Notes: generated from the letters alone by a model not told the origin. Counted from the first letter of the stretch, positions 26,957-45,276 are shown. The stretch is 45,276 nt of DNA from an uncultured bacterium (GCA_964577095.1 CAZNXX010000004.1:1-45276); one strand, 5' to 3'. Numbers and translations are program-made.

Positions 26957-27018
26957 TAATAAAAAGGAGCGGGCTGCCTTCGAATTGGATTGATCGATCC
27001 CGAAGTCATACAGCCCGC
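26957..27018 (-). terminator. Compound hairpin plus T-tract ending the low-GC gene array
   Basis: On the minus strand: GCGGGCTG...(inner CTTCG/CGAAG stem)...CAGCCCGC followed by TCCTTTTTATTAT. It lies directly downstream of the last island gene. Confidence 0.55.
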
Positions 27019-27032
27019 ACCCTGAAAGCGCT

Positions 27033-27197
27033 CTACAGACCTTTTACCAGATTCCCGAGAGCCAGAACGATGAATCCGATCAAAACCATCGCAAATGCGT
27101 AACCGGTGTGGATGATCCCCTGAGAGGCGAGTGCTCCGAGTATCGCCAGAATGACAGCGATAAAAAATGTAATCTCTTTGGGAGGCGTGAGTTTCAT
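27033..27197 (-). CDS. Small two-TM membrane protein (54 aa), absent from the supplied ORF track
   Basis: Hand-translated as MKLTPPKEITFFIAVILAILGALASQGIIHTGYAFAMVLIGFIVLALGNLVKGL. AAGGAGA lies 8 nt upstream of the ATG. Confidence 0.6.
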   Translation of the reverse strand: MKLTPPKEITFFIAVILAILGALASQGIIHTGYAFAMVLIGFIVLALGNLVKGL

Positions 27198-27302
27198 GAT
27201 TTTGTTCTCCTTCTGTTTTGGTTTGGAGATGTCACCTTTTCAATTCGGTTGATCGAACCCGCAAAGATGCGCTTCTTGAAGCCGTTTTAGAATCCGGATA
27301 TT

Positions 27303-27944
27303 CTATTGCTGGGCCATTTCGACACTGGCGACATTGACGGCTGCCTGAACGCGGTTCAACGCATCCTTCAAACCGACGCCCTCCTGCAGAACCTTGACGG
27401 TGATCGGCAGAATCGAATCGACTCCTTTCAGGGTCAGGTCGTTTGATAGAAATTTCTGTATCTCTTTCATGTCGGACATGTATGTCTGAAAAACTCCTTT
27501 GACTCCGATGCTTTCTTCGGCGATTTTGCCATACACTTCACCCAACTCGGCCCGGCGCTGTTCACTGAGCGCACGGATCTGCGGATTGGCGTACGCGTCT
27601 CCCTGTTTCTTCCATTCAACGAAATACTCCTTTCCGCGGACCTTCATCTCATCGGCATGCACGGTGAACTTCTTTTCCATCGCGTCCATTTTAACCACGT
27701 TTGCGGAAAAGGCATCGAACGCGGATTTGACATCGGGCTGCCCCGCCCGGGTCAGGTTATTCAGTGACGCTCCCGTTGCATCCAACTGAACGGCGACAAC
27801 TAATATTTCCTCGGACACAGTCTGCATTGTGGTCATTGCGTTTCCTGATCGCTCCATGCCGGTTGTCGCGCAGCCGGTAAGGAAGGCGGACATGCCAATC
27901 ATAATTGCGATCGGCGAAAGTACGGATCGTTTCAAGTTTTTCAT
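27303..27944 (-). CDS. Helical lipoprotein (tentatively DUF2959-like)
   Basis: Lipobox FLTGC after a signal peptide, and AAAGGAGA upstream. The helical body resembles DUF2959-type lipoproteins in layout only, so the family call is weak. Confidence 0.7.
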   Translation of the reverse strand: MKNLKRSVLSPIAIMIGMSAFLTGCATTGMERSGNAMTTMQTVSEEILVVAVQLDATGASLNNLTRAGQPDVKSAFDAFSANVVKMDAMEKKFTVHADEMKVRGKEYFVEWKKQGDAYANPQIRALSEQRRAELGEVYGKIAEESIGVKGVFQTYMSDMKEIQKFLSNDLTLKGVDSILPITVKVLQEGVGLKDALNRVQAAVNVASVEMAQQ

Positions 27945-27981
27945 CTGATTCTCCTTTTTTTAATTCTGTATACTTCGAAAT

Positions 27982-28422
27982 TCACTTCTGACTATCCCCG
28001 AATAGCCCCTCTATCTTCTTGCCGATCTGGTCCAGTTCCCCCTGAAAGTCCGCTTTGAATTTGACCCATTGGCTTTGTCCCCCATCGTATTGCTCCAGCT
28101 TTTTCTTCAAGTCGCGATTCTTTTGTTCCAGGTCGGCCACTTCCTTGGCGAATTTCCTGTTGGCGGTGGAGCCGCTTGCTTCCATCTTTTCTTTGAATAC
28201 CGCAATATTCTTTTCATTTCCTACGATTTTTTGTGCGGATTCGGTTTTAAATATTTCCCATTCGGCAAGATATCCGGCCCTGGCCTCAGTCAATTCCTGC
28301 TGGGCCGATTCCAGATTCTCTTTCGCATTTTCAACTTTTTGTTTTGACGATTTTTCACAACCGACCAAGCAAGCTCCGGCGATCAAACCCATGGCGGCCA
28401 GGGTTACAATTCCTTTGTTCAT
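27982..28422 (-). CDS. Coiled-coil lipoprotein
   Basis: Lipobox LVGC. ATG 28422 has AGGAAAGGA upstream, while the track ORF starts 36 nt earlier. Lys/Glu-rich heptad-like sequence. Confidence 0.72.
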   Translation of the reverse strand: MNKGIVTLAAMGLIAGACLVGCEKSSKQKVENAKENLESAQQELTEARAGYLAEWEIFKTESAQKIVGNEKNIAVFKEKMEASGSTANRKFAKEVADLEQKNRDLKKKLEQYDGGQSQWVKFKADFQGELDQIGKKIEGLFGDSQK

Positions 28423-28521
28423 TATTTTTTCCTTTCCTGGTTTCTTTTCCATAACCATTACACATAATCGGTGATACCGTTTTTGTGAACCCGGCGTCAG
28501 TTCAATTCTCCGGGAATTTGT

Positions 28522-28818
28522 TTAACTTTTCAAATTGTCAATCTTCTCCGCCTCTTCCTTTATGGATTGCTTGTGCTGATCCACCTTTTCAATCAACCCT
28601 TTTATCTTCAAATTTTTCCGGATATCTCCGTTTTGACCGTTGGCCAGCTCACTGTACACTTCCGTTCCGATCTCCTTGAATACTTCATTCAAAGAGTGGG
28701 TGCTGTTCGCCATGTCCAGCTTGACCTTACCGATTTTCATGTATTTATTGGTCGTTGCCGCCGCGTCGGACAGCTCCCCTTTGATCGTTTTTTTGATTTT
28801 ATTCCAATTCGTTGACAT
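28522..28818 (-). CDS. Small coiled-coil hypothetical protein (98 aa)
   Basis: ATG 28818 is preceded by GGAGGA plus 7 nt. The track ORF (to 28899) runs through the upstream terminator and is rejected as a start. Confidence 0.6.
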   Translation of the reverse strand: MSTNWNKIKKTIKGELSDAAATTNKYMKIGKVKLDMANSTHSLNEVFKEIGTEVYSELANGQNGDIRKNLKIKGLIEKVDQHKQSIKEEAEKIDNLKS

Positions 28819-28865
28819 ACGCGATTCCTCCTGCCGTTCATCACTGTTTTCCGAATTTATCTTCA

Positions 28866-28900
28866 GGGAAAACTTGAGCGGACATTCCTGTCCGCTCAAG
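28866..28900 (-). terminator. Rho-independent terminator after the OMP gene
   Basis: Perfect 11-bp stem CTTGAGCGGAC/GTCCGCTCAAG with a 6-nt loop, followed by TTTTCCC on the minus strand. Confidence 0.8.
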
Positions 28901-28911
28901 TCTCAGGAAGA

Positions 28912-29454
28912 TTAAAGTTTGTACAGAAGACCGACAGTGAGAACATAGAAGTTGCTTTTCAAACTGCCGGATCCCGGAATTTCCTCAAAATCGTAATTCA
29001 GGAAGACATAACGGATATCACCGGTCAAAAGAAACCTTGTTTCAACCGGCAATTCCACCCCGCCCCCAAAATGGTAACCGACCTTCTGCGTCGTCTCGTC
29101 TTTCAAAAGCGGTAATTTTTTCTTATTATAATCATACGTTACACTGTACCAGCCGGCGCCGACTGCCCCGTAAAGCATGGGCACCGGATAAACCAGGCCG
29201 GTGATCATGACAGGCCAGTTTCGAACCGTCAAAAGACCGTCCGCGTATTTTTCCTGCCGATAGTTGATGGATGCTTCGACGCCGAAGATCGGTTTTACCT
29301 TCAGCCTCCATGCCACCCCGCCCATCAATGATCCTTTATCGGCTTCCTGGGCTTTATAATAGCCGATTTGCGGACCCAGACTGATGCCCTGTGTATTCCC
29401 ACGGGGAACCATCAGAAAAGTCAAACCTAAGATGAACCACAGTTTCTTGTTCAT
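28912..29454 (-). CDS. Small outer-membrane beta-barrel protein (OmpA-barrel/OMP_b-brl-like), paralog 1
   Basis: 180 aa from ATG 29454 (GAAGGAGG upstream). It has a signal peptide, alternating amphipathic strands and a C-terminal ...VGLLYKL. It is 114/180 identical (hand alignment) to 30104-30646. Confidence 0.85.
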   Translation of the reverse strand: MNKKLWFILGLTFLMVPRGNTQGISLGPQIGYYKAQEADKGSLMGGVAWRLKVKPIFGVEASINYRQEKYADGLLTVRNWPVMITGLVYPVPMLYGAVGAGWYSVTYDYNKKKLPLLKDETTQKVGYHFGGGVELPVETRFLLTGDIRYVFLNYDFEEIPGSGSLKSNFYVLTVGLLYKL

Positions 29455-29605
29455 CACACAGCCTCCTTCAATTGGATAAATGATTGTTATTGTTGGATCC
29501 TTCTCGTTCCTTGACTTCAATTCAAATCTATTCTCCATCTCATTTTCTCGTCCCGACTCATGGCTGAATCTGTTCTTGAGATCCTCATTGGTATTTTGAG
29601 ATTGA

Positions 29606-29824
29606 CTACTTTTTACGCCCGACAATAACCATCACAATACCGCCGGCGAGCGCCAATCCGCCGAAAAGAGGCGATAAAGGAACCGTTTTCCGGGTTTCGG
29701 TTGAAGCCTGGATAGGGCCGATATCGATGATTTTCTCACGTGAAGTGTATGTGATGCCCTGATAAATGAAAACCATTGCGCCAAGCACGATGAGAACGAT
29801 TCCGATGAACAGGATGGGTTTCAT
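29606..29824 (-). CDS. DUF3185-like small two-TM membrane protein
   Basis: 72 aa with two hydrophobic helices flanking a polar loop and a basic C-terminus GRKK. AGGAGA upstream overlaps the end of the preceding gene. Confidence 0.7.
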   Translation of the reverse strand: MKPILFIGIVLIVLGAMVFIYQGITYTSREKIIDIGPIQASTETRKTVPLSPLFGGLALAGGIVMVIVGRKK

Positions 29825-29836
29825 GCGTTTGATCTC

Positions 29837-30007
29837 CTATTTCAGTGATTCATGCCGCACTGCCGATTTGCGGCCTTTTATGACTCTGAACAGCAGTACG
29901 ATGATTGCTGCCACCAGCAGGACATGGATGAGTCCACCCACTAAATGGCCGCTGAAAATGGCGATCAGCCACAATAACAGAAGAATGGTAATGAGAGCCC
30001 AGAACAT
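29837..30007 (-). CDS. lmo0937-family small membrane protein (56 aa), absent from the supplied ORF track
   Basis: Hand-translated as MFWALITILLLLWLIAIFSGHLVGGLIHVLLVAAIIVLLFRVIKGRKSAVRHESLK. It parallels the 42751-42903 product. AAAGGAA upstream. Confidence 0.75.
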   Translation of the reverse strand: MFWALITILLLLWLIAIFSGHLVGGLIHVLLVAAIIVLLFRVIKGRKSAVRHESLK

Positions 30008-30058
30008 TTTAATATTCCTTTCTGCGATTCTGTATTCTCATCTCTGCGTCCTTCCAGG

Positions 30059-30098
30059 CACACAGCCGGAGGGAATATCCGGTCCGTCCGGCTGTGTG
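30059..30098 (-). terminator. Strong hairpin after OMP paralog 2 (no U-tract)
   Basis: 11-bp perfect stem CACACAGCCGG/CCGGCTGTGTG with an 18-nt loop. The flanks are not T-rich. Confidence 0.45.
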
Positions 30099-30103
30099 AT
30101 CTA

Positions 30104-30646
30104 TTATAAACCGAACAGCAGTCCGACGGTCATGACAGTGAAATTGCTTTTCATGTCGCTGCTGCCCGGGACTTTTTCAAAGTCATAATTCAGGAATACA
30201 TACCGAATATCGCCGGTCAATTTGATTTTTGAGACGACCGGGACTTCCAACCCTCCGCCAAAATGCCAGCCGACTTTATGCGAGGTGTCGTCTTTGAGGA
30301 TCGGCACCTTCTTCTGATCATAATCAGAAGTCACGCTGTACCACCCGGCTCCGACGGCTCCGTACACAACGGGCAGGGGATAAATCAAACCCGTCACCAT
30401 CACCGGCCAGCTTCGAACCGTCAAAGCGCCATCCGCATATTCTTCCTGACGGTATTGAATGGAGGCCTCAACGCCGATGACCGGCAGCAGTTTCATCCGC
30501 CAGGCCGCTCCCCGCATGAAGGAACCCTTGTCCGCATCTTTCGTCTTAAAATATCCGATCTGCGGTCCGATTCCAAAGCTCTGCGCCGCCACCTGGGCCG
30601 CCATCAAAATGAACAGCCCTGCCAGCAGATTGATTCTCATGCGCAT
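30104..30646 (-). CDS. Small outer-membrane beta-barrel protein, paralog 2
   Basis: 180 aa with signal peptide ...AAQVAAQS and GGAGA upstream. It shares long identical blocks with paralog 1 (GAVGAGWYSVT, LTGDIRYVFLNYDFE). Confidence 0.85.
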   Translation of the reverse strand: MRMRINLLAGLFILMAAQVAAQSFGIGPQIGYFKTKDADKGSFMRGAAWRMKLLPVIGVEASIQYRQEEYADGALTVRSWPVMVTGLIYPLPVVYGAVGAGWYSVTSDYDQKKVPILKDDTSHKVGWHFGGGLEVPVVSKIKLTGDIRYVFLNYDFEKVPGSSDMKSNFTVMTVGLLFGL

Positions 30647-30769: not shown

Positions 30770-30955
30770 TCATGGCTTCCAGAACATCAGCTTGATTTCT
30801 TCCCTGGTTTTTCCGAGCCTCTTCTGCAATCGACCCAACACCTCTTCTTCATTTCGAATCTGGAATACCGTGGAATCTTCGCTCCGATTGGAGAATTTTG
30901 TCTTCAAATTTCCTCCGGCTTCCTTCCAGCTGCCGTTCGCATCGAGATTGACCAT
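30770..30955 (-). CDS. CsbD-family general stress protein
   Basis: 61 aa with a GSWKEAGGNLKTKF...VLGRLQKRLGKTREE pattern. CCAGGAGG upstream. Confidence 0.85.
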   Translation of the reverse strand: MVNLDANGSWKEAGGNLKTKFSNRSEDSTVFQIRNEEEVLGRLQKRLGKTREEIKLMFWKP

Positions 30956-30979
30956 CTGGCGCCTCCTGGTCTTCTTAAC

Positions 30980-30993: not shown

Positions 30994-31045
30994 CGTCTTT
31001 TTGCGTGCATCCGCATGAACATCATAATCATTTTCCGCGATCAGA

Positions 31046-31219
31046 TCAATCGGCCGTCAGGACGAAAAAGTGATTAATTCTTTTGATTGATCGGAGCCTG
31101 ATTCCCGATTTGCCGGTCATCCGTCCCGAACACTCCACCCGAGGGTCATTCCGAAAGACGCGCGAGGCCGTGCGAATCGACTCGCACGGATTGGTGCATC
31201 GCTTCGGTTCGATATTCAT
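31046..31219 (-). CDS. Candidate 57-aa ORF, absent from the supplied ORF track
   Basis: ATG 31219 is preceded by GGAGG plus 8 nt. Product is MNIEPKRCTNPCESIRTASRVFRNDPRVECSGRMTGKSGIRLRSIKRINHFFVLTAD. No family recognised. Confidence 0.3.
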   Translation of the reverse strand: MNIEPKRCTNPCESIRTASRVFRNDPRVECSGRMTGKSGIRLRSIKRINHFFVLTAD

Positions 31220-31260: not shown

Positions 31261-31488
31261 TCAGTCCGTCAAGCTTGGGTATTCATCGATCGACCCCGGC
31301 GGCCGTCGCGAATCTCGGGAACCCGGCCTGCCGGCGCATTCATCTTTCTGATTCATCTGATCGTATAATTTTTGAGAAATGAACAGGCCGGCCAATTCCA
31401 CTATCCCTGTTTCAGCGCTTGCCGTGCCGCTGACTGACGACACTTGGGCGATCACCGTCGACTGACTCGGGTCCAGGTTGTTTTTCAT
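31261..31488 (-). CDS. Hypothetical 75-aa protein
   Basis: GAGGAGA Shine-Dalgarno upstream. The N-terminal half is plausible and the C-terminal half is low-complexity. No family recognised. Confidence 0.45.
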   Translation of the reverse strand: MKNNLDPSQSTVIAQVSSVSGTASAETGIVELAGLFISQKLYDQMNQKDECAGRPGSRDSRRPPGSIDEYPSLTD

Positions 31489-31772: not shown

Positions 31773-32414
31773 TCACCTGATGTAATAGGCGATTCCAGCA
31801 CCTGCGTAATGGAATGAATCATCGTTCAGCGCCAATCCAAACTCCGCGACAAAATCGATGGTTTCGGAAATCCGGTATTCGATTCCCGGCACGAGGTGCA
31901 ATCTCGTGATCGAATCGTCGACACCCGAGGGGACATCCTTCATCTTGTCGAACGACGCATCCAGCGCCCCGCACAGTTCAAGCTTTTTCCCGATGAGGCC
32001 GCTCAACTGCGGGATGATTTCGAACCCCATCAGGTCATAACCGGCGTCTTTGCCGGCCAGCCAGTTCAAGCCGCCGGTCAGCGAGAAATCCATACCGGAA
32101 CCCTGTTCAGTGCCTCTGAGTATCCAGTATTCTCCATCCACGCCGACCAGAGTTCCGTTATCCAGGAACCCCAGTTTGGCTTCAACGTCGAAATGCGGGG
32201 TGAATGCGTATCCTCCGCGAATCCCCACTCCGACCTGGTTGTCGGCTCCGTCTTTGCCGAACACCATGATCGGGGCCGCCATCAATTTGAAGGTTCCCTG
32301 GTTCATCGTTTCGGCGGACTGAAGCACGCCGATCGTCTGAGCCGAAGCCGATTTCGAGAAACACAGCCCCAACGCGACGGCAAAGAAGATCCGTCCGATT
32401 TGAGAGATTCTCAT
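31773..32414 (-). CDS. Outer-membrane beta-barrel protein (213 aa)
   Basis: Signal peptide ending SASAQ, alternating beta-strand pattern, C-terminal GIAYYIR, and CAGGAGGA upstream. Confidence 0.72.
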   Translation of the reverse strand: MRISQIGRIFFAVALGLCFSKSASAQTIGVLQSAETMNQGTFKLMAAPIMVFGKDGADNQVGVGIRGGYAFTPHFDVEAKLGFLDNGTLVGVDGEYWILRGTEQGSGMDFSLTGGLNWLAGKDAGYDLMGFEIIPQLSGLIGKKLELCGALDASFDKMKDVPSGVDDSITRLHLVPGIEYRISETIDFVAEFGLALNDDSFHYAGAGIAYYIR

Positions 32415-32619
32415 GTCCTGTCCTCCTGAAATGAATGATTGAACGGTACCGAATGTTTTTACTTAATTAAAGTATACTTTTTCAACGCCTGAATCAATCG
32501 CCCAAAGGGATGAAAAAGGATCCGGTTCTTTTGGACGATGCAGAATTCAGACAAAAACAACGATGGCACGATTCTCTTTTCCCCTTTTTCAGCGCGACCG
32601 GTCCGATGCTGGATCTTCG

Positions 32620-33423
32620 TTACCGCTTATAATGCGTCAAAGCCTCTTTCATTTCAGACTTCAGCTTGCGGATGCGGCTCTCATCGGAAGGATGTGTGCT
32701 CAGGAACTCAAGCGACTGATTATTGGCGCTTTGAGACATGCGTTGCCAGAAATCGATTGCGCCGTTCGGGTCGTACCCCGCCATGGCCATGAAAATCAGT
32801 CCGAGATGATCGGCTTCACCCTCCTGCATCCTGCTGTATGGCAGCATGGCTCCGATCTGGACTCCGGCGCCGAAAAGGGACATCCAGATGTCCTGTGTCT
32901 GTTTGGGTTTCTGCCGGAGCGCTGCGGCAAGGGTTTGGCCGCCCAAGTCGGCAATCAGCGCCTGACTCATCCGCTCGTTGCTGTGCTTGGCCACGGCATG
33001 GGCGATCTCGTGGCCCATCACGACCGCCAGTCCGTTTTCATTTCGGGTGACAGGAAGAATTCCGGAGTAGACCACGACTTTTCCACCCGGCATGCACCAG
33101 GCGTTGACCTCCTTGTTCTCGATCAGGTTGAATTCCCAGGCGAACCCGTTCAGATCCTGCGACCAATTTTTCCCGGCAAAATAGTCCGTCACCGCGTTCT
33201 GGATCTTCCTTCCGACTCCCTTGACCTGATTGGCCTGGGCCGTGTTGTCGCTCAACCGGTTCTCCTTCATGAACTGGTCATACTGGACAAAGCTCGTGGA
33301 GAGCATGTCGGTGTCCGAAACCAGGGAGAGCTGACGTCTTCCGGTGAGCGGAACCAGACTGCAGGCCGCAGACAGAAGCGCGGCCACGATCAGGTGAAAG
33401 AATCCCGTTTTGATCTTTTTCAT
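32620..33423 (-). CDS. M48-family zinc metallopeptidase (LoiP/YggG-like), lipoprotein or secreted
   Basis: HEIAH zinc motif with downstream EGEADHLG, and N-terminal LLSAAC lipobox-like signal. Confidence 0.9.
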   Translation of the reverse strand: MKKIKTGFFHLIVAALLSAACSLVPLTGRRQLSLVSDTDMLSTSFVQYDQFMKENRLSDNTAQANQVKGVGRKIQNAVTDYFAGKNWSQDLNGFAWEFNLIENKEVNAWCMPGGKVVVYSGILPVTRNENGLAVVMGHEIAHAVAKHSNERMSQALIADLGGQTLAAALRQKPKQTQDIWMSLFGAGVQIGAMLPYSRMQEGEADHLGLIFMAMAGYDPNGAIDFWQRMSQSANNQSLEFLSTHPSDESRIRKLKSEMKEALTHYKR

Positions 33424-36446: not shown

Positions 36447-36647
36447 TCAGGACCGTGAGCCGCCGATACGAATCCCGGATATTGATTGCAACACGCCGAA
36501 ACCGTTTAACAGCCAGAGAACGACCGCAATGACGACGACAGCATTCAATATCGATTTGATTTTATGGTCCATCGGTATGAAGTGGCTGATCAGCCACAAG
36601 AGGACACCGACCACGATCAGGGTGATGACGACATTGATTAACGGCAA
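36447..36647 (-). CDS. Thivi_2564-family small membrane protein
   Basis: 66 aa. PLINVVITLIVVGVLLWLISHFIPMDHKIKSILNAVVVIAVVLWLL matches my recollection of this family. TTG start with AAGGGAG 6 nt upstream. Confidence 0.72.
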   Translation of the reverse strand: MPLINVVITLIVVGVLLWLISHFIPMDHKIKSILNAVVVIAVVLWLLNGFGVLQSISGIRIGGSRS

Positions 36648-37608: not shown

Positions 37609-39078
37609 CTATTGTTGCACATAGAATTCGATTCGCCGGTTATCCGTCCGGCCCTCCTCCGTGTTATTGTCGGCAATGGGCTCCATCTCGCCCTTGCCGA
37701 ACGATCGCATGCGATGGGACCGGATGCCCCTCTGCTCCAGCCAGTTCTGGACCGCCTGCGCACGTCGCAGCGACAGGTCCTGATTGTATTCGTCGCTCCC
37801 GACGTTGTCCGTATGACCGGATATTTCGATCCACACATCGGGCCGGGCAATCAGCGCCTGATAAGCGAGCTCCAAAATGTCCCTTGAATCAGCCGTCAGA
37901 ATGGACTGATCAAAGTCGAAATTGACGCCTCTCAGAATGATTTTTTTCCCCGGATCGAGGAGGATTGTCTTGATTCCCTTCGAAATGTCATCCTTCCAAT
38001 CGAGCGGATTGGTTCCCCTTTTGACTTCAGCGCCGTCGTTCACGCCGCCGTTATCCGTGTCGATTTTGATCGGATCGGTTTTCGACGTATTTGCCTCGTA
38101 ACCATCGTTCAAATCATCGCCATCCGTGTCCGCTTTCGCGGGATCGGTTTTGAACTGATTGACTTCATCGCCGTCGTTCAAGCCGTCTTTATCGGTATCC
38201 ACTCTCAATGGATTGGATTTATATCTGAATTCATTTCCATCGTTCAAGCCGTCTCCGTCTGTGTCCGTTCGAAGCGGATCCGTTTCAAATCGTTTGACTT
38301 CGGTGCCATCGAACAGACCATCGCCGTCGGAATCCGCTTTGAGGGGATTGGTCTGATACTGATTCACCTCGTCTCCGTCGCTCAATCCGTCCGCGTCGGT
38401 GTCCGCGTTATTGGGATCCGAACCGGTTTCTTTTTCCGCCGCATTGCTCAATCCGTCCCTGTCCGGATCGTCCGACCCGCCACCGGATGCGCCGACGGAT
38501 GCCCTCGTGAACATGAGCCCGATGACGAATCCGTAAAAACCGTCCTGCTTTTCATTGGTCAGCCGGTTCAGATTGGATTCCGAGCGTTCGCGGCCGTCCA
38601 GTTTGTCTCTCAGGGACAATGCGTATCCTCCGCTCACTTCCAGTATCATCTGGCTGTGAACCCGGGTCTGAAAACCGAGCCCTATGGGGATCATGGGTAA
38701 AAAGCTGGATCCGCTCCTGTCAACGGCTTTGGACACGCCGAAACCGGCGTATAAAAACGGGTTCAGTTTTTCAAGAGAGAATGGGATGAAAAGGAACCTG
38801 TTTTCAATCATGGCCGTTTCCGCGGAATAGACACCGGGAGCGTCGAGCCGGGTGTATCCGACTCCCAGTTGTCCCAGTAAACTGGGAGCCATCATCTGGT
38901 ATTGAAGAAATCCCCGGTATTGAGCGACCCATTTGTCGGAATTGCTGTTGTCTCCCATGGCTCCCCCGACGGCAATGCCCAATCCCTGGCTCGGATTCTT
39001 AAATCCGAATCCTGCTTTGGCAGGGTTCAAGCATAACAGGACAAGAAACACCGGCATAAACCGTAAAATCCATTTCAT
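37609..39078 (-). CDS. OmpA-family outer-membrane protein: beta-barrel, thrombospondin type-3 Ca-binding repeats and OmpA_C
   Basis: ATG 39078 (AAAGGAG upstream), signal peptide, about 8 DxDxDGxxDxxE repeats, and a C-terminal HTDNVGSDEYNQDLSLRRAQAV. Confidence 0.9.
   Translation of the reverse strand: MKWILRFMPVFLVLLCLNPAKAGFGFKNPSQGLGIAVGGAMGDNSNSDKWVAQYRGFLQYQMMAPSLLGQLGVGYTRLDAPGVYSAETAMIENRFLFIPFSLEKLNPFLYAGFGVSKAVDRSGSSFLPMIPIGLGFQTRVHSQMILEVSGGYALSLRDKLDGRERSESNLNRLTNEKQDGFYGFVIGLMFTRASVGASGGGSDDPDRDGLSNAAEKETGSDPNNADTDADGLSDGDEVNQYQTNPLKADSDGDGLFDGTEVKRFETDPLRTDTDGDGLNDGNEFRYKSNPLRVDTDKDGLNDGDEVNQFKTDPAKADTDGDDLNDGYEANTSKTDPIKIDTDNGGVNDGAEVKRGTNPLDWKDDISKGIKTILLDPGKKIILRGVNFDFDQSILTADSRDILELAYQALIARPDVWIEISGHTDNVGSDEYNQDLSLRRAQAVQNWLEQRGIRSHRMRSFGKGEMEPIADNNTEEGRTDNRRIEFYVQQ
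37998..38472 (-). repeat. Thrombospondin type-3-like repeat array (coding)
   Basis: Iterated D(T/S)D(G/K/A)DGL(N/S/F)DG(D/N/T)E units separated by xxxT(D/N)P(L/A)Kx, read from the translation. Boundaries are approximate. Confidence 0.8.
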
Positions 39079-39141
39079 CTGAATGCTCCTTTCAGTGAAT
39101 GTCTCATTTTCATTTCGATTTATTTTGACTCCCAATCATCT

Positions 39142-39330: not shown

Positions 39331-40446
39331 TTATTGAACAACGATTTCGAACAAAACTCGCATGTTGGCCTTTGCCGCTTTTGAATAGAGTTCCCTGGGC
39401 GCGGCTTCATGCTCAGCCGGTTTGGTTTCGCCATACCCGATCGTTGAAAGTCTGCCCGCCATAATAACGCCTTCATTCACCAGGAATTCTTCGACGGTAC
39501 GGGCCCTTCTTTCGCTCAATCTTTGATTGTAATCTTCAGTGCCGGAAGCGGAGGTATAGCCTGCAATCCTGATTTTGGATTCCGGGTTGTTCTTCAGAAT
39601 CTGGACGCTCTTTTTCAGGATCCGCTTCGCTTTTTCCGTGAGAGTCGACTGGTTGAAATCGAAATGCACATCCTCAAAGGCAAGAATAACCATTTTCGGC
39701 TTCGTCGCAAGAACCTTCACCGTCTCCTCCACCTGCGGTTCAGGCACATCTGACACGAGAACGACGACCTTCTCCTCTGTTCCCGGTTCTTCCATTTCAA
39801 CCCGTTCCGGCCGGTTTTTCGACTGACCGCCGAAGGCCAATACGATTCCCGCGGAAGCGTGGACATTGTGATACCCCTGCTTAAAAGGGAACACTTCGGT
39901 GACGAAATGATCCCTGAGGTCGAGCCTGAGTGCGAAATGTTCCGCAAGCCACAATTTGGCGCCCACTCCGAGATCAAAGGTGGACATGTCCTGATTCGAT
40001 ATTTTCGGACTGTAGCGGACGCCTCCCAGCCCGGCGACAATGAACGGGGTCAGCCGGCGGTCGGGCATAAAATGATAGACCGCGTCGATATGATAGAAGG
40101 TTAGGTCCACTTTATCCATCGGACTTCTGTACTGGCCTTCCTTGGCTCCCGTCCTGGCTTTATCCAAAACGCCGCTGTTGACCAGCTCCACGGTGCCTTC
40201 GATGCCGAAACGCTTCGTCAAATTCAAGCCGATTCGTCCGCCATAGACAGGACTGTTTTCGAGATTCTGTCTGTCTTCAAAAAAATGATAGCCTATAAAC
40301 GGACTCAATTCGACACTATGTGCCCGTATTCCCAGGAGACCGGATGATTCGGATCGGTCATCCATGCCGGATGCAACCGAAGGCAGGCCGGTCACCCACA
40401 GAACAGCCGAAGCTGTAATGAATAATGCCGTATTCAGTATTTTCAT
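39331..40446 (-). CDS. OmpA-family outer-membrane protein (N-terminal beta-barrel plus OmpA_C)
   Basis: Signal peptide, beta-barrel region, and C-terminal YTSASGTEDYNQRLSERRARTV. Three in-frame ATGs (40467, 40452, 40446), and the last has the best GAGGA spacing. Confidence 0.9.
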   Translation of the reverse strand: MKILNTALFITASAVLWVTGLPSVASGMDDRSESSGLLGIRAHSVELSPFIGYHFFEDRQNLENSPVYGGRIGLNLTKRFGIEGTVELVNSGVLDKARTGAKEGQYRSPMDKVDLTFYHIDAVYHFMPDRRLTPFIVAGLGGVRYSPKISNQDMSTFDLGVGAKLWLAEHFALRLDLRDHFVTEVFPFKQGYHNVHASAGIVLAFGGQSKNRPERVEMEEPGTEEKVVVLVSDVPEPQVEETVKVLATKPKMVILAFEDVHFDFNQSTLTEKAKRILKKSVQILKNNPESKIRIAGYTSASGTEDYNQRLSERRARTVEEFLVNEGVIMAGRLSTIGYGETKPAEHEAAPRELYSKAAKANMRVLFEIVVQ

Positions 40447-40497
40447 TTTCATTCCTCTTTCTTTCATTTCATTTCTTCATTCGGCATTTTCCCTCGA

Positions 40498-40562: not shown

Positions 40563-42659
40563 CTATGGATTGCTCACCGCATTGAAATCCAACGTCACCG
40601 CGGCGATCCGTGTCATGGCTCTGCCCACGAGTGAAGCGCCATTTTGCATCGTGACGGATTGATCCGCCATGATGGTTCCCTTCATCGCGGCCGTGGTTCC
40701 GATCGTCGCCGAGGTGCCGACCTGCCAGAAGACATTCTTCGCCTGCGCACTGCCTGCCAGTATCACCTGGCGACCGGACGTCACTGTGAGCGACGACGGG
40801 ATCTGGAAGATGAAAACGCCTTCCGAATTGCCCTGTGCGTCGAGAGTCAGGTCTCCGGACGAGATGGCCAGTGTGGAAGTGGAAGTATAGACTCCGGGAG
40901 TGAGAGTCTGTCCTCCGATGTTCCCAGATACTGTGGCACCGGGAGCCCGTCCAGCCGCGTCGTTATAGGCGCTCGTCAGACAGGATTTTGCGTTATTGGC
41001 TTCCGTATCATTGATGCGTATCGTCCCGTTCACGATTCCGGGCGGGAATCCGGTCACTGAGCTACCCGGACTCAGCCCGAGATCACCATTCACAATGGTA
41101 TTGCCGGTATTGGTCACAGTCGAACCGGCCAGAATCGGGAAACCGGAAGCGCATCCAAGATTCACCATAGCGGGTCCTGGAGGAGGCAGGGCAGCGCCGG
41201 TGGTAAATTGCCACACATAGTCGCTGGCCAGAGCATTGCCCGCGAGATCCCTGGCTCCGGTTGTAATCGTCGCCGTATAGGTGGTGTTGGGCTCAAGATC
41301 GGATTCAGGCACAAATGTTCCACCCGTACCCGCGTAGGATACCGCTCCGGATACCGGTGTATTCCCCTGTTTTAATGTAAATGTGAGTGAGTTCATCGTC
41401 AGGGGATCCATCGCCTCGCTGAAGAATGCCGTGACGAACTTGTTCAAAGGCACGCCTGTGGCGTTATTCACCGGATCCGTGGAAATGACTGTGGGTCGAA
41501 CGGCATCCGGTGCATCACCCGTGGTAAAGCTCCACACATAGTGATCGGCCATGGCGTTGCCTGCGAGGTCCCTGGCTCCGGTGGTGATCGTTGCCGTATA
41601 GGTGGTGTTGGCGGTCAGATTGCTGGTCGGCGAAAAGGTTCCGGTCCTCCCCACATAAATGACCGTACCCGATACCGGCGTGGATCCCTGTTTCAAGGTA
41701 AATGTCGCCGTGGTAATCGTCACCGGATCCATCGACTCACTGAAGGTTGCGGTGATTCTCTTGTTTACAGCCACGCCCGTGGCGTTGTTCACAGGATCGG
41801 TTGAAATCACCATGGGCCGGGTGAGATCCTGAGCCGCGCCCGTGGTAAATCTCCATACATAATTATTGGCCATGGCGTTTCCGGCGAGGTCTTCAGCTCC
41901 GGTGGTAATCGTGGCCGTAAAGAGTGTGATGGGGGCGAGGGGGTTTGCGGGGGAAAATGTCGCGACCAGACCGACATACGTGACTGAGCCCGAAACCTCG
42001 GTGTCCCCTTGCTTCAGGGTAAATGTGGACGCGGTGATCGTCAACGGATCCATCGCTTCACTGAAGGTTGCGGTGATTTTCTTGTTGAGAGCCACGCCCG
42101 TGGCGTTATTCAACGGGTCTGTCGAAATAACAACGGGCCGAGTGACATCCGGAGCCGTGCCCGCGGTAAAGTTCCACACATAGTTGTTTTCCATGACGTT
42201 TCCCGCAAGATCCGTAACACCGTTGGTAATGGTCGCCGTGTAGGTGATGTTGGCAGAAAAATTGCCCGCAGGTTTGAAGGTTGCGACCAGGCCTGTATAG
42301 GTAACGGTTCCGGATATCGGCCTGGTACCCTGCTTGACGGTGAATGTGGACGTATTGATCGATGACGGGGCCATGGGTTCACTGAATGTGGCGCTGACAG
42401 CCGTGTTGATTGCCACATTTGTGGCAGTGTGGAATGGGATCGTGGAACTCACCGTGGGCGCGGTTTTATCCGAGCCCCCTGTAATTTTCGATCCATCCCA
42501 GATGCCGCATCCCGCCATGAGGATCATGAAAAGCATGGCCATGAGGATTGCCCCGGTGACATTGCGAAGATGGCCGAACAACCGCCTTTTCCCGGTTTTC
42601 CTTTGGGGGTCCGCGAACCGGACTTTTTCGGTTTTATTATCCTTTGAATTTGTATTCAT
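40563..42659 (-). CDS. Lipoprotein with four SbsA/Big_5-type Ig-like repeats and a C-terminal DUF3494 (ice-binding-like) beta-solenoid domain
   Basis: ATG 42659, basic N-terminus, and lipobox LMAGC. Four repeats of ~105 aa (D.TRP.VISTDP.NNATGV...TATITTGA.DLAGNA...YVW.FTTG). The C-terminal ~200 aa (ILAGSTVTNTGNT.VNGDLGLSPGSSVTGFPPG...VFWQVGSSAT-like) are typical of DUF3494. Confidence 0.85.
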   Translation of the reverse strand: MNTNSKDNKTEKVRFADPQRKTGKRRLFGHLRNVTGAILMAMLFMILMAGCGIWDGSKITGGSDKTAPTVSSTIPFHTATNVAINTAVSATFSEPMAPSSINTSTFTVKQGTRPISGTVTYTGLVATFKPAGNFSANITYTATITNGVTDLAGNVMENNYVWNFTAGTAPDVTRPVVISTDPLNNATGVALNKKITATFSEAMDPLTITASTFTLKQGDTEVSGSVTYVGLVATFSPANPLAPITLFTATITTGAEDLAGNAMANNYVWRFTTGAAQDLTRPMVISTDPVNNATGVAVNKRITATFSESMDPVTITTATFTLKQGSTPVSGTVIYVGRTGTFSPTSNLTANTTYTATITTGARDLAGNAMADHYVWSFTTGDAPDAVRPTVISTDPVNNATGVPLNKFVTAFFSEAMDPLTMNSLTFTLKQGNTPVSGAVSYAGTGGTFVPESDLEPNTTYTATITTGARDLAGNALASDYVWQFTTGAALPPPGPAMVNLGCASGFPILAGSTVTNTGNTIVNGDLGLSPGSSVTGFPPGIVNGTIRINDTEANNAKSCLTSAYNDAAGRAPGATVSGNIGGQTLTPGVYTSTSTLAISSGDLTLDAQGNSEGVFIFQIPSSLTVTSGRQVILAGSAQAKNVFWQVGTSATIGTTAAMKGTIMADQSVTMQNGASLVGRAMTRIAAVTLDFNAVSNP
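41190..42470 (-). repeat. Four tandem ~315-bp coding repeats (Ig-like domains)
   Basis: The repeats share long identical nucleotide runs (for example AACGCCACGGGCGTGGCT and ATCACCGCAACCTTCAGTGA). Boundaries are approximate. Confidence 0.8.
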
Positions 42660-42750
42660 TTGATCTTCTCTCTTTTTTAATCGATTGAACCAGTTCGGTC
42701 CCATCGTATTTCGATACCGATTCAGGAGGACTGGTGCTTTCCGGTTCAAG

Positions 42751-43014
<264 letters not shown>

Positions 43015-43074
43015 CTATCTCTCAGCCGACTCACTGAAAAGTCGATTTGGACGAGGCGTCGCACCATCCGCGGG

Positions 43075-43332
43075 TCAGCGTCTTCGTCCGGCGAGGGTCC
43101 TGATCAAGAACAGAAGAATCAGCGCCCCGACAATCGCCGCGATGAGCAGACCCAGAATGCCGGCGCTGGATATGTTGAGCTGACCGAACAGCCAGACTCC
43201 GATGAAGGCGCCCGCCACGCCGACGACCAGATCCCCCAGAAGGCCGAATCCCCTGCCCTTCCAGATGTGTCCGGCCAGGAATCCCGCCAGAACTCCAACC
43301 GCCAAAAAGATCAGCAGATGTTCCGTGCTCAT
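43075..43332 (-). CDS. GlsB/YeaQ/YmgE-family stress-response membrane protein
   Basis: 85 aa with LAVGVLAGFLAG...GDLVVGVAGAFIGVWLF...IVGALILLFL. AAAGGAGA upstream. Confidence 0.9.
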   Translation of the reverse strand: MSTEHLLIFLAVGVLAGFLAGHIWKGRGFGLLGDLVVGVAGAFIGVWLFGQLNISSAGILGLLIAAIVGALILLFLIRTLAGRRR

Positions 43333-43370
43333 GGTGTTTTCTCCTTTGAATAGGAATGTTTTGCCGTTTT

Positions 43371-43383
43371 GAACCGCGTTTTG
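43371..43383 (-). promoter_or_regulatory. Motif variant (plus strand GAACCGCGTTTTG) upstream of the glsB-like gene
   Basis: The GGTTC end is 38 nt upstream of ATG 43332. See the motif finding. Confidence 0.3.
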
Positions 43384-43485
43384 TTTTTCGACCCCGTTCT
43401 CTTTGTCCTGAGTCGACCGCCGGATTCGACTGCCGGTCTCTCTCTTGCGCCCCTTATTTCTTGAATGCCCGCATGATCTTCTCCT

Positions 43486-44214
43486 CTATTTTTCAACCGG
43501 AGATCCGCCGGATAGGATCATGGCGATTCGATCGAGAGAAACCAGCGAGCCGCTTTTGAGGAAAATCACGTTACCGCCCGTCTGCAGAACTCTTTCGATG
43601 ACCACGTCCACCACGTCATCGATGACTTCCCGGAGATTGACATGCCTGGATACAACCGGCAGACGATCCGTTTTTCGAATGCTCCCTCTCACGTGATAAT
43701 CCTCTTCAACGTACAGGATCGAACCTTCGTCCGTGTCAATTGCCTCGATGACTGCCTGGATTCCAAAAACGACTTTTTCCCTTTTACCCGCCGCTTCCAG
43801 ATCGCGGATCGCGTTTTTATCGGTACCGGCGATCAACTCCTTGACGACCGGCCAGACGATCTTTCCCAAATCATGGTTCGATGTCAGCGCGTACTCCCCT
43901 TCAACACAGCCGATGAATGAGCCCAGATGGGTGGTCAGGGTTTTATATTGATTCTGCAGACCCATCGCACCGACCAACACCCATCGAAGCGGATCCTGCA
44001 GGTGATAATGAGTGAATCGGCTGTCGGTCTGTCTGATGAATTCCTGCCTGCGGCTGCCGCCGCTGGCTTCACGGGAGGCGCCGGCGTCATTGACCGGGAT
44101 TTCAAACGGGAAACGGGAGTCCTGTATGTCAATGAGTCTGTCTCGAAATCCTTCGTACAATCGACTGGTCCGCTCATTCAAGGACAAAACATAGTAATGG
44201 ATGCTGGGCTGCAT
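43486..44214 (-). CDS. eRF1/Pelota-like (bacterial aeRF1, 'baeRF'-type) protein, 242 aa
   Basis: The central region WVLVGAMGLQNQYKTL and the C-terminal VVFGIQAVIEAIDTDEGSILYVEEDY...VIERVLQTGGNVIFL resemble eRF1 domains 2 and 3. The call is inferred by eye, and the Shine-Dalgarno is weak. Confidence 0.55.
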   Translation of the reverse strand: MQPSIHYYVLSLNERTSRLYEGFRDRLIDIQDSRFPFEIPVNDAGASREASGGSRRQEFIRQTDSRFTHYHLQDPLRWVLVGAMGLQNQYKTLTTHLGSFIGCVEGEYALTSNHDLGKIVWPVVKELIAGTDKNAIRDLEAAGKREKVVFGIQAVIEAIDTDEGSILYVEEDYHVRGSIRKTDRLPVVSRHVNLREVIDDVVDVVIERVLQTGGNVIFLKSGSLVSLDRIAMILSGGSPVEK

Positions 44215-44565
44215 GTCGGTTCTCTATTTTGGACGATTGCTTCTTTTTGCGGATACGGGAAACCCTTTCGGCGGGGCTCTCCCGACCGGCATTTTCATGC
44301 CCATAGTTACTCATACGCAACCGCAAAAACAATCGACCAAAGGATTGAAAAGGGAGCTAATTCATTGGATCAATGCGGGATGCATCCTGCGGTCAATTCC
44401 GAACGGACGGATCGCATCAGGGGAGGGTATTCACTTGAAATTAAAGGAATCAGGCGGAAATGGTGCGGGCGGTGACAGAAGCGGTTTGTCTGAGGAGAGG
44501 TCCTGGAATCGGCAGGGGTGGATCGATGATCGCGCGGCGCTCAGTGGATCGTGCGGCGAATCGGA

Positions 44566-45222
44566 TCAGCCGGATCCATCCTTGCGGACAAACGCGGCTA
44601 TCTGCAGGCGGGTGTTGAGCTCCAGTTTTTCCAGAATGTTATGCACATGGCTCTTGACCGTGAAAGTGGCGATGTTCAGGCGTTCGGCGATTTCCTTGTT
44701 GCTCAGGCCCTCCGCGATCAGACCGACGATTTCACGTTCGCGATTCGTAAACTGGATGGATTTGGAAGGGATCTCTTTTCCATCCCTGAGCGCGGTCTCT
44801 ATAATCTGACTGAACAGGGATTGGGTCATGCGCGGGGGAAGCACTTTCTCGCCGCCTGCGACGGTTTTTATCGTTTTTTTCCAATCATCCCAGGGGGCGT
44901 TCTTTAAAATGAATCCGGATCCCCCGGCTTTTACGAATTCGACGATGTCCACATGGTCGGGAAGGATATCCATTGCGATGACCTTCGCATCCGACACTTG
45001 TTCCTGAAGCTGGGACATCAATTTCAGGCTGTTCTCTTTTTCCAGACCGAGGTCCAGCAGAATGACATCGGGTTGTTTTTTCATCTTCTTCATCTGCTGC
45101 ACGGTCTCGCCGTCTTCGGATTGCGCGACGACCTCGAAATCGGCGTGTTTATTGAGCATGCCGGCGATGCCCTCACGAAGAAGGCGGTTATCCTCAATCA
45201 ATAATATCCGGATTTTACCCAT
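44566..45222 (-). CDS. NarL/FixJ(LuxR)-family response regulator
   Basis: Receiver domain (ILLIEDN, VILLDLGL) and C-terminal LuxR HTH (TNREREIVGLIAEGLSNKEIAERLNIATFTVKSHVHNILEKL). No kinase gene is present in the window. Confidence 0.93.
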   Translation of the reverse strand: MGKIRILLIEDNRLLREGIAGMLNKHADFEVVAQSEDGETVQQMKKMKKQPDVILLDLGLEKENSLKLMSQLQEQVSDAKVIAMDILPDHVDIVEFVKAGGSGFILKNAPWDDWKKTIKTVAGGEKVLPPRMTQSLFSQIIETALRDGKEIPSKSIQFTNREREIVGLIAEGLSNKEIAERLNIATFTVKSHVHNILEKLELNTRLQIAAFVRKDGSG

Positions 45223-45247
45223 AGAAAAGCCATCCCAAATTATTGAT

Positions 45248-45276
45248 AATTATGGAATTATGGAATTATGGAATTA
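45248..45276. repeat. Tandem octamer AATTATGG x3.6, truncated by the window end
   Basis: Read directly from the sequence. It lies 26-54 nt upstream of the response-regulator ATG. Confidence 0.85.

Follow-up and report, generated by a model that had tools for sequence, protein, structure and literature searches.

A probably inherited stress or dormancy gene cluster with a shortened Balon homolog and a near-invariant promoter-operator in KSB1/Calditrichota-like bacteria

Introduction

Balon is a ribosome hibernation factor whose genes are typically found in stress-response operons (Helena-Bueno et al. 2024, PMC10901736). The structure 8RD8 represents a hibernating ribosome with Balon and RaiA (PMC10901736). 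Balon possesses neither the NIKS nor the GGQ motif, its binding to the A site is independent of mRNA, and the HP motif of its N domain contacts the decoding centre (PMC10901736). The baeRF-1 proteins have no catalytic motif and were proposed to act in translation shut-down (Burroughs & Aravind 2019, PMC6514570), and this clade is said to spread via lateral transfer (PMC6514570). Here we analyse a 45,276-nt stretch of DNA from an uncultured bacterium (GCA_964577095.1, CAZNXX010000004.1:1-45276), hereafter the window, in which a gene cluster at 26,957-45,276 contains a shortened homolog of Balon, a NarL/FixJ-type response regulator and three copies of a promoter-operator element.

A sequence-only reading of the window had described this segment as a low-GC island, horizontally acquired, with a role in envelope remodelling or dormancy. 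Comparison with related loci supports a different origin. The 27-45 kb segment, functionally together with its neighbours back to ~20 kb, is probably a chromosomally inherited, regulator-controlled stress/dormancy regulon cluster of KSB1/Calditrichota-like bacteria of the Fibrobacteres-Chlorobi-Bacteroidetes (FCB) group, and not a recently acquired island. The functional part of the earlier proposal was strengthened by the Balon homolog and by at least three promoters which share a near-invariant element. All the credible genes of the window (1.3-45.2 kb), including the 23 genes of the cluster, are on the minus strand, and so are the three element copies, a weak fourth motif match and the tandem repeat at the contig end. 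The strict co-directionality noted earlier is therefore true for the cluster genes, but it is a property of the whole window and not specific to them.

Results

Conservation of the gene cluster

The cluster was found, in the same or in shuffled order, in ~30 of the compared loci (the L002-L035 range and L081), which belong to FCB-group lineages labelled KSB1, Caldithrix/Calditrichia, Calditrichota, Krumholzibacteriota, "Cytophagia", Bacteroidota, Rhodothermales and UBP14. Co-localisation of these genes is thus conserved in other genomes. In L002-L004 and L008, which carry the closest relatives of the Balon gene (67-70% identity), the following genes are present and arranged as in the window: regulator, Balon homolog, GlsB, DUF5670, Ice_binding, barrel-OmpA, TSP3-OmpA, Gly-zipper-OmpA, THIVI_2564, 144-aa protein, C11-like protein and 402-aa protein. 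Loci with 41-61% Balon identity retained most of the set, sometimes rearranged, and regulator, 144-aa protein, C11-like protein, Balon homolog, DUF5670 and β-barrels is a frequent variant order. The Chloroflexota Balon homologs (~30% identity) have none of the neighbour genes of the cluster. Conservation extends to the flanking genes: a glycosyltransferase family 4 (GT4) gene (72-75% identical), a GH130 gene and a B12-binding radical SAM/DUF4070 gene were found at most 10 kb away from it in L005/L022, L010/L029, L013, L024, L025 and L031, and the radical SAM gene is co-linear with the Balon gene in L013 and L031.

The cluster proteins showed a median identity of 86% to those of L002. Backbone proteins showed 87% (Ffh), 86% (g12) and 90% (g13) identity to those of L208, where the local gene order is the same; L002 and L208 are different contigs of the same Joint Genome Institute (JGI) sample series, for which origin from one organism is assumed. 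This circumstantial comparison suggests that cluster and backbone are equally diverged from one related population. None of the usual marks of mobility was detected in the window. It contains no tRNA gene, Pfam scans of its proteins gave no integrase, transposase or other mobility domain, and no direct repeats flanking the cluster were found within the contig, which on the right ends 54 nt upstream of the regulator gene. Among 22 relatives a tRNA gene is present within 10 kb of the cluster in only two, and never adjacent to it. Patchy presence was not seen, the cluster being present in all ~30 regulator-bearing loci, with no search aimed at empty sites.

Two further arrangements were observed among the compared loci. 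The contig CAXXFV010000009.1 (L010/L029) possesses two regulator-Balon pairs ~14 kb apart with GT4/GH130 genes between them. In L064 and L070 (metagenome-assembled genomes labelled Zixibacteria and Ignavibacteriaceae; 3.7-10.7 kb), a distant Balon homolog (30%) is situated ~2 kb downstream of an ffh-rpsP-KH-rimM-trmD-rplS operon, and the same operon is also found in the window at 7.1-11.2 kb.

Base composition and the origin of the cluster

The mean GC content is 0.617 at 1-20.3 kb and 0.522 at 26,957-45,276, so the reported drop is real. It is smaller and less abrupt than was described: the ranges of 57-75% and 33-58% given earlier overstate it, as 60-nt lines have a mean GC of 0.586 (5-95%: 0.45-0.68) at 23.5-26.8 kb and 0.523 (0.38-0.63) at 27.0-45.3 kb. 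In 1-kb windows the values were 0.60-0.68 at 1-16 kb, 0.535-0.556 at 16-18 kb, 0.50-0.54 at 20-23 kb, ~0.60 at 23-26 kb, 0.44-0.50 at 26.5-30.5 kb and 0.50-0.57 onward. The lowest trough, at 26.5-30.2 kb, has a GC of 0.474 and the rest of the cluster 0.534. When a single change-point was allowed, least-squares segmentation put it at 20.3 kb (GC 0.617 before and 0.532 after it) and not just downstream of GT4 (26.8-27.0 kb), where the earlier reading had drawn the boundary; a break at 26.5 kb appeared only in models with at least three segments. GC at third codon positions (GC3) was 0.769 in 17 backbone genes and 0.633 in the 23 cluster genes (Mann-Whitney p=3e-6). The radical SAM, GH130, GT4 and g19 genes in between had a GC3 of 0.661, indistinguishable from that of the cluster (p=0.30). 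The step at 26.9 kb is therefore mainly one of codon positions 1 and 2, that is of amino-acid usage, plus spacers. In the cluster proteins, Arg, Ala and Pro are rarer and Asn, Thr, Ile, Lys and Gln commoner than in the backbone. Mean gene length is 643 nt in the cluster and 1076 nt in the backbone, with coding densities of 0.81 and 0.90, respectively. Tetranucleotide z-scores of backbone and cluster correlated at 0.25-0.34, compared to 0.52-0.61 within each, and the 20.3-26.9 kb segment was intermediate in signature. A compositional profile distinct from the backbone, in GC, codon usage and tetranucleotides alike, is hence confirmed.

In the related loci, the cluster lies 4-10 GC points under its flanks in GC-rich hosts, and it is equal to or above them in AT-rich hosts. 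Across 21 loci, the GC3 of the cluster followed that of the flanks as 0.26 + 0.47 x flank GC3 (r=0.86, p=5e-7). Lower GC is thus a standing trait of the cluster in GC-rich hosts and no mark of recent import. It comes from a GC3 drawn to ~0.49, from proteins poor in R/A/P and rich in N/T/I/K/Q, and from extra spacer DNA.

These data bear directly on recent horizontal acquisition, in which an 18-kb low-GC island from a lower-GC donor would have been inserted beside GT4. Such an event would explain why GC, GC3 and tetranucleotide signature are unlike those of the 1-20 kb backbone and why the terminal genes i22 and i23 in the lowest-GC part, at 27.0-28.0 kb, have no homolog in any compared locus; the lateral spread reported for the baeRF-1 clade (PMC6514570) would agree with it. 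Nevertheless it is not supported, because order and content are kept in ~30 loci across lineages together with the GT4/GH130/radical SAM neighbours, divergence from the related population is alike in cluster and backbone, no tRNA, integrase or flanking repeat was found, and the GC offset is clade-wide. In addition, the GC3 of the neighbours equals that of the cluster with the main change-point at 20.3 kb, and a cluster GC above the flanks in AT-rich hosts is the opposite of an AT-rich-import signature. We consider recent acquisition very unlikely, and with it the origin given in the sequence-only reading.

Ancient or recurrent lateral exchange has a small but appreciable chance of being correct. 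In this case a long-established cluster would sometimes be swapped between related FCB genomes of unlike GC, and its composition would never fully equilibrate. A GC3 slope of 0.47 with a fixed point at ~0.49 fits such exchange, as do the distinct tetranucleotide signature, the shuffled order, the gain and loss of accessory genes (KaiC-like, σ2-like open reading frame (ORF), 190-aa lipoprotein), the two regulator-Balon pairs 14 kb apart in one genome (L010/L029) and, in L005, an integrase accompanied by a transposase at a distance of 8 kb upstream. But the cluster GC3 still strongly follows host GC3 (r=0.86), the flanking genes are co-conserved, and the divergence of the closest relative matches that of the backbone. 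Moreover, a weaker compositional drive on rarely expressed genes would give the same compressed slope. The GC3 compression itself could stem either from such a weaker drive or from occasional swaps between related lineages. Whatever the host, cluster GC3 is pulled to ~0.49 throughout the clade, a minor and so far unexplained evolutionary pattern which could separate weak drive from recurrent exchange.

A shortened homolog of Balon

The gene at 43486..44214, called eRF1-like in the sequence-only reading, encodes a 242-aa protein of baeRF_family3 (PF18845, 1.3e-22). A profile of its orthologs matched Balon in the PDB (8RD8_B, E 8e-21) over residues 117-367 of 369, and the window protein alone matched the same entry with E 5e-6. 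In Foldseek searches with its AlphaFold2 model (predicted local distance difference test, pLDDT, 73.8), the top three hits were Balon of Psychrobacter urativorans (8RD8_B E 3e-15), and the next in rank were Pelota and mycobacterial Balon (Msmeg1130, 6e-9). The GGQ motif is absent in the window protein and in a 16-sequence alignment. The entire subfamily (229-273 aa) misses the N domain. Profile and predicted fold together identify the product as an N-domain-less homolog of the ribosome hibernation factor Balon. Its residues 174-196, a possible counterpart of the EF-Tu-binding β-hairpin, were modelled at pLDDT <50.

A near-invariant promoter-operator element

A non-coding block of ~85 nt was found to be nearly invariant among relatives whose proteins are only 40-70% identical. 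Motif and nhmmer profile searches identified three copies in the window. Copy 1 (44304..44389; nhmmer 44306-44389, E 1.4e-15) contains the invariant operator, a -35 hexamer TTGTTT (44332-44327), a 17-nt spacer and a -10 hexamer TAACTA (44309-44304), and is positioned 113 nt upstream of the Balon homolog. Copy 2 (32469..32550; nhmmer 32473-32550, E 5.4e-17) precedes the 213-aa β-barrel gene with TTGATT (32497-32492), 17 nt and TACTTT (32474-32469), and has the orthologous position in L009, L016 and L081. Copy 3 (31021..31105; nhmmer 31024-31105, E 5.2e-8) is 90 nt upstream of the CsbD-like gene with TTGATC (31049-31044), 17 nt and TATGAT (31026-31021), the same hexamers being picked up in a generic σ70 scan. 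A 57-aa ORF at 31046-31219 was rejected as a gene, as it overlaps copy 3 and has no homologs.

The operator of ~40 nt is composed of AAAGAnnTAGTTCC upstream, followed by the TTTTTCATCC and CTTTGGGCGA blocks, and the -35 abuts it. It contains TAGTYC repeats, including a 7-2-7-like inverted pair TAGTCCA-AA-AGAACTA, and a block TTTTCATCC-CTTTGGG. The invariant block overlaps the -35, and the spacer too is conserved within KSB1/Calditrichota. Related loci possess 1-4 copies each, all on the gene strand and 80-135 nt before start codons. With the nhmmer profile the element was significant only in regulator-bearing loci, with none in the Chloroflexota loci. It was present in 30 of 31 regulator loci, and the four loci with the element only are incomplete contigs. 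In L006, a 272-nt tandem duplication at 9569-9922 comprises the whole element and the first Balon codons (copies 9569-9650 and 9841-9922).

A scan of metagenome contigs with a 22-nt core of the element gave at least 120 contigs with an exact core match. Among the matches listed, the first ORF after the element was most often the Balon homolog (13), the small β-barrel of element copy 2 (12) or CsbD (7), and in fewer cases OmpA, DUF5670, the KaiC-like protein or the regulator. First ORFs which have no counterpart in the window encoded UspA-like, Cys-rich DUF326-like, LapA-like, DUF4398-like and Lys-rich mini-proteins. In at least seven contigs (L093, L133, L135, L161, L171 and L172 among them), the first ORF encoded a Gly/Met/Asn-rich protein of 76-83 aa with two transmembrane (TM) segments (MENNLMNTKNN...GGMMNGGMNGSGW...); by its position this is a predicted regulon member which is absent from the window and has no family assigned. 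TAnnnT was located exactly 17 nt past the TTGnnn of the core in 121 of the 185 unique instances listed, with a conserved AAAGAnnTAGTTCC on the upstream side, and the flanks which carry TAnnnT played no part in selecting these instances. A fourth motif match in the window (23417-23446), with the degenerate core GGATCC-TTGCTCGTCCCATCGGACGATTG, coincides with the point where the radical SAM gene is annotated to begin; it is non-significant by profile (E 5.7) and is a weak candidate; in one metagenome contig a radical SAM gene follows the element.

Strand-specific placement with constant spacing to the coding region behind it would also suit a structured 5' leader, a riboswitch or a small RNA. However, RNAalifold scored both strands at 0.0 kcal/mol, without a consensus structure and without an advantage over column shuffles, an Rfam search of 20-45 kb gave no match with E<=1 over the element copies, and, by the -35/-10 geometry, transcription is predicted to start only after the greater part of the invariant block, which makes an RNA barely credible. 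Because this geometry is present and RNA structure and Rfam family are absent, the element is read as DNA, a predicted σ70-type promoter whose -35 abuts a near-invariant operator. Elsewhere in 20-45 kb the Rfam search gave a chance c4-a1b1 match.

The response regulator and its accessory genes

The regulator (44566..45222, 218 aa; Response_reg 4e-15, GerE 4e-18 in Pfam) is an orphan of NarL/FixJ type. No other protein of the cluster is as conserved, with identities of 62-94% across 31 loci. In 35 orthologs E10/D11, D57 and the FILK Lys do not vary, and the recognition helix TVKSHVHNILEKL hardly does. The regulator is inferred to read the element, because its recognition helix is invariant like the DNA target and both co-occur. 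The gap between regulator and Balon gene is only 351 nt in the window. In ~8 genomes a KaiC-like ATPase of two domains and ~580 aa is encoded in this gap, frequently with a separate element copy in front of it (L002 7684-9429, L007 2236-3969, L008, L009, L017 and L081), and it is a candidate input module for the orphan regulator. In 11 relatives an ORF of 83-90 aa similar to σ70 region 2 only immediately follows the Balon homolog (L005 10769-11041, L006 10781-11032, L007 10793-11062 and 8 further loci; PF04542 5e-9 in L007); its product might be an accessory of split-sigma type or one which binds RNA polymerase. Searches of the window for this σ2-like ORF, for the KaiC-like ATPase and for a 190-aa lipoprotein of the relatives showed that all are absent. 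Just upstream of the regulator gene, the contig ends in a triple tandem repeat of TAATTCCA (45253..45276). The same triple repeat is found upstream of the regulator ortholog in L008 (~6600-6640); it is possibly the regulator's own operator or promoter, and perhaps the cause of the assembly break at the contig end.

The element could instead be recognised by a dedicated sigma-type factor, either a split sigma made of the σ2-like protein of ~85 aa and the σ4-like helix-turn-helix (HTH) of the regulator, or an unlinked alternative sigma. The PF04542 ORF directly after the Balon homolog in 11 loci hints at this possibility, together with a Sigma70_r4_2 match of the regulator HTH (4e-7), the overlap of the invariant block with the -35 and the spacer conserved within KSB1/Calditrichota. 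However, the window, L002 and L008 keep the element without the σ2-like ORF, the -10 is a generic TAnnnT at a 17-nt spacing typical of a housekeeping-type holoenzyme, and GerE scores far better on the regulator than Sigma70_r4_2. A sigma-type reader is therefore judged unlikely.

Proposed mechanism

With the regulator as reader of the element, the following course of events may be proposed. The orphan regulator would be phosphorylated on Asp57 by a kinase encoded outside the window, would bind the operator AAAGAnnTAGTTCC-TTTTTCATCC-CTTTGGGCGA next to the -35 (TTGnnn-17 nt-TAnnnT) and would activate the promoters. Promoter 1 would drive the Balon homolog along with GlsB, DUF5670 and the Ice_binding lipoprotein, promoter 2 the small β-barrel protein, and promoter 3 the CsbD-like gene and another β-barrel protein. 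The N-domain-less Balon homolog might then occupy the A site and the peptidyl-transferase region and park ribosomes. The three OmpA_C peptidoglycan-tethering proteins, three β-barrels, lipoproteins, M48 and C11-like peptidases and small membrane proteins might stabilise and clean the envelope of the non-growing cell. The data show the identities of the genes, their synteny, the Balon fold and, for the element, its conservation, promoter geometry, downstream genes and co-occurrence with the regulator; binding of the element by the regulator, induction by stress, binding of the truncated Balon homolog to the ribosome and the roles of the envelope proteins are what we infer.

Genes of the cluster

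Pfam confirmed most of the earlier gene calls, namely the NarL-type regulator, baeRF_family3, Transgly_assoc, two DUF5670, four Big_5 with Ice_binding, three OmpA_C, three OMP_b-brl and M48. Next to the Balon homolog lie the genes of a GlsB/YeaQ-type small membrane stress protein (Transgly_assoc, 85 aa; 43075..43332, PF04226 1.7e-9, orthologs in 9 loci) and of a DUF5670 (lmo0937-type) small membrane protein (42751..43008, PF18919 4e-15, found in 21 loci). As the orthologs of the latter have 49-50 aa and the PF18919 match covers residues 36-79, its true start is probably M36 (42903), with a predicted product of 50 aa. A lipoprotein gene follows (40563..42749), in whose product four Ig-like Big_5 domains precede an Ice_binding domain at the C terminus (DUF3494; Pfam 3e-105 and 1e-60); it has 321-nt coding repeats and a 3' hairpin of -39 kcal/mol.

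Three proteins carry the peptidoglycan-binding OmpA_C domain. They are an OprF/OmpA-type porin with a β-barrel (39331..40467; OmpA 3e-23, OMP_b-brl 3e-8, 20 loci), an outer-membrane protein with six TSP3 calcium-binding repeats (37609..39135; TSP3_bac 9e-37, OmpA 1e-21, 20 loci) and a glycine-zipper lipoprotein (36740..37420; OmpA 2e-23, Gly-zipper_Omp 2e-12, 21 loci). The small membrane protein at 36447..36647 (66 aa, 14 loci) is of THIVI_2564 type by orthology only: the window protein has no Pfam match, and its 85%-identical orthologs are annotated PF28077, which sustains the earlier call in part. A secreted helical protein of 144 aa with a C-terminal membrane anchor (35939..36373, 19 loci) is always paired with the C11-like gene. 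The alignment of its orthologs has a mean column identity of 69%, and no relative was found in Pfam or, with the ortholog profile, in the PDB. The C11 (clostripain)-like protein (34777..35898, 373 aa, 18 loci) is a putative cysteine peptidase lipoprotein. Its PF03415 score of 25.0 bits is under the cut-off of 25.8. H173 (GHE) and C219 (STC) are invariant in 15 orthologs, which is compatible with a His/Cys dyad; its ortholog profile gave no match among PDB sequences. Next to it are a conserved 402-aa protein with no assigned function (33466..34674; 6 loci, 52-90% identical, no credible Pfam match) and an M48 zinc metallopeptidase lipoprotein (32620..33423; PF01435 1e-34, 8 loci).

The small outer-membrane β-barrel protein behind element copy 2 has 213 aa (31773..32414, OMP_b-brl 2e-9). 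A 75-aa ORF at 31261-31488 had a single weak match. The CsbD-like small stress protein of 61 aa (30770..30955) matched PF05532 only at E 0.005, under the Pfam cut-off, although its L007 ortholog carries PF05532; the assignment is a weak one. The DUF3185-like assignment made in the sequence-only reading (E 0.1) is unsupported. A duplicated module at 28912..30646, with genes assigned by Pfam, contains a β-barrel outer-membrane protein (i16, 30104-30646), a second DUF5670 gene (29837-30007), a 72-aa 2-TM protein (29606-29824) and a paralogous β-barrel outer-membrane protein (i19, 28912-29455/29625). The two β-barrel genes are 72% identical in DNA (28923-29222 and 30115-30414), and the local duplication encloses the DUF5670 and 2-TM genes.

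The terminal genes (27033..28899) are poorly conserved and form the lowest-GC part (0.474). They encode a 125-aa protein (28522-28899) and a 158-aa lipoprotein (27982-28458), both with homologs in 6-10 element-bearing contigs, and the pair i22 and i23, a 213-aa lipoprotein (27303-27944) and a 54-aa 2-TM protein (27033-27197) with a 3' hairpin of -30 kcal/mol. Homologs of this last pair were found in none of the 207 compared loci, and these two genes may be younger additions. Strong hairpins are located 3' of the Ice_binding, barrel-OmpA, 144-aa, both β-barrel and last genes. In a scan for generic σ70 promoters and terminators, neither was enriched relative to shuffled sequence (16 vs 12.3 for the former and 25 vs 22.1 for the latter).

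Genes adjoining the cluster

Genes for the GT4 glycosyltransferase, which is extended at its C terminus (24469-26766), GH130 (23531-24472) and the B12-binding radical SAM/DUF4070 protein (21790-23421), all three assigned by Pfam, adjoin the cluster. Between the radical SAM gene and a cold-shock-domain gene lies g19 (21307-21726, 139 aa), with a good start context and no Pfam match; a test of it as a second aeRF1-like domain was negative (hhalign probability 0.1% vs the Balon profile). The cold-shock-domain protein of 70 aa (20401..20613, PF00313 1.9e-28) was missed by longest-ORF calling. The GT4, GH130, radical SAM and cold-shock genes share low GC3 and conserved linkage and probably belong to the same functional neighbourhood as the cluster. 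The cold-shock gene (20401-20613, within 20346-20767) coincides with the onset of the low-GC domain at 20.3 kb. An Rfam cspA-thermoregulator match over it is sub-threshold (33 bits, cut-off 78), and a Lys-rich 61-aa ORF (20724-20909) is positioned just upstream. Further left, a PqqD-family protein (19888-20196, PF05402 2e-15) is encoded just upstream of a 605-aa ABC transporter ATPase/permease (18006-19823). Such a pairing is typical of RiPP (ribosomally synthesised and post-translationally modified peptide) or peptide export, and this gene pair is unrelated to the stress cluster.

Discussion

Synteny, conserved neighbours and the common element together favour an inherited regulon cluster, and several observations weigh against this view. 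The element directly precedes just 3 of the ~23 cluster genes, and the hairpins suggest ~8 transcription units with the element at the start of only three; the place of the other genes in the regulon rests on conserved linkage. A factor other than the regulator could read the element. The receiver domain of the regulator has A-M (VIAMD) where Thr/Ser is usual, and no histidine kinase domain was found in the window or in the clusters of the relatives. Ribosome binding of the Balon homolog is not assured without the N domain which contacts the decoding centre. With respect to origin, the low tetranucleotide correlation between backbone and cluster sets the two apart, the GC3 slope of 0.47 is equally expected from repeated lateral exchange among related lineages, and the comparison of divergence depends on the assumed common origin of L002 and L208. 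The right boundary of the cluster is beyond the contig end, 54 nt upstream of the regulator gene, and Logan SRR8925737 (L001), the one further record in which these genes occur, stops at the same base as the window.

What had the look of an island, owing to a step in composition within 45 kb, is by comparative data a conserved, co-inherited cluster. By this cluster, Balon-type hibernation factors gain a regulatory context in uncultured FCB lineages, with a specific regulator and a promoter-operator. The latter is so conserved that all members of the regulon may be listed with it as a search key, in genomes and metagenomes alike. How a Balon homolog keeps hold of the ribosome is a question raised by this short subfamily, which has no decoding-centre domain. 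A much wider proposal, which we offer as distinctly doubtful, is that the regulator is the master switch of an unrecognised general stress/dormancy response in KSB1, Calditrichota, Krumholzibacteriota and neighbouring FCB lineages. Assisted in many genomes by the σ2-like mini-protein and the KaiC-like ATPase, it would act through the near-invariant operator, possibly as a phosphorylation-gated split sigma-like factor, and would couple ribosome parking by the N-domain-less Balon homolog to envelope reinforcement. If true, bacteria would have a third architecture to control their general stress response, in addition to alternative sigmas (σB, σS) and to the partner switch PhyR-NepR-EcfG.

In the literature searched, this cluster, the N-domain-less Balon subfamily in such a context, the linked NarL-type regulator and the cross-phylum promoter-operator were not found. 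The earlier remark that no described system co-localises these genes thus stands for the cluster as a whole, but the occurrence of Balon homologs in stress operons (PMC10901736) and the translation shut-down proposed for baeRF-1 (PMC6514570) are already published. The window protein resembles Balon and baeRF-1 by Pfam, PDB profile and predicted fold, and like Balon it has no GGQ. Its gene context is also of stress type, the reported context of Balon being OsmY/OsmB/OsmC, HdeD, Hsp20, RaiA and alternative sigma factors (PMC10901736). It differs in having only 242 aa, aligned to residues 117-367 only, without N domain and HP motif. No RaiA/HPF gene adjoins it, and its neighbours encode OmpA_C proteins, β-barrels, peptidases and the Ice_binding protein. 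The linked regulator and the shared promoter are absent from the published account of Balon (PMC10901736).

The cluster shares with classical genomic islands a composition which deviates from the adjacent backbone. It differs from them in the lack of integrase, tRNA and flanking repeats, in its conserved neighbours and in a GC offset whose sign flips with host GC. In Bacillus subtilis, σO-RsoA (YvrI-YvrHa) forms a two-subunit sigma. A tiny protein of σ70 region-2-like sequence only beside a σ4/LuxR-like HTH protein, as found in 11 relatives and not in the window, resembles this system, but the HTH partner here would be a response regulator with a receiver domain, and the small ORF is absent from the window. 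NarL/FixJ/BvgA promoters are similar in that a receiver and a GerE-HTH domain are combined with a phospho-acceptor Asp, and in the TAGTYC repeats with a 7-2-7-like pair abutting the -35. The present system departs from them in having no adjacent histidine kinase, with a KaiC-like ATPase in some relatives, and in a predicted operator of ~40 nt which appears almost invariant across phyla, far above typical NarL sites.

General stress regulons (σB in Bacillus/Listeria, RpoS in γ-proteobacteria and EcfG-NepR-PhyR in α-proteobacteria) have the CsbD, GlsB/Transgly_assoc, lmo0937/DUF5670, OmpA-like and USP-like families in common with this system, and they also possess a common promoter signature before many dispersed and clustered stress genes. 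In the window there is no alternative sigma gene, and -35 and -10 are of housekeeping type. Specificity would here be given by the upstream operator of ~40 nt together with the linked NarL-type regulator, and many members of the predicted regulon are clustered.

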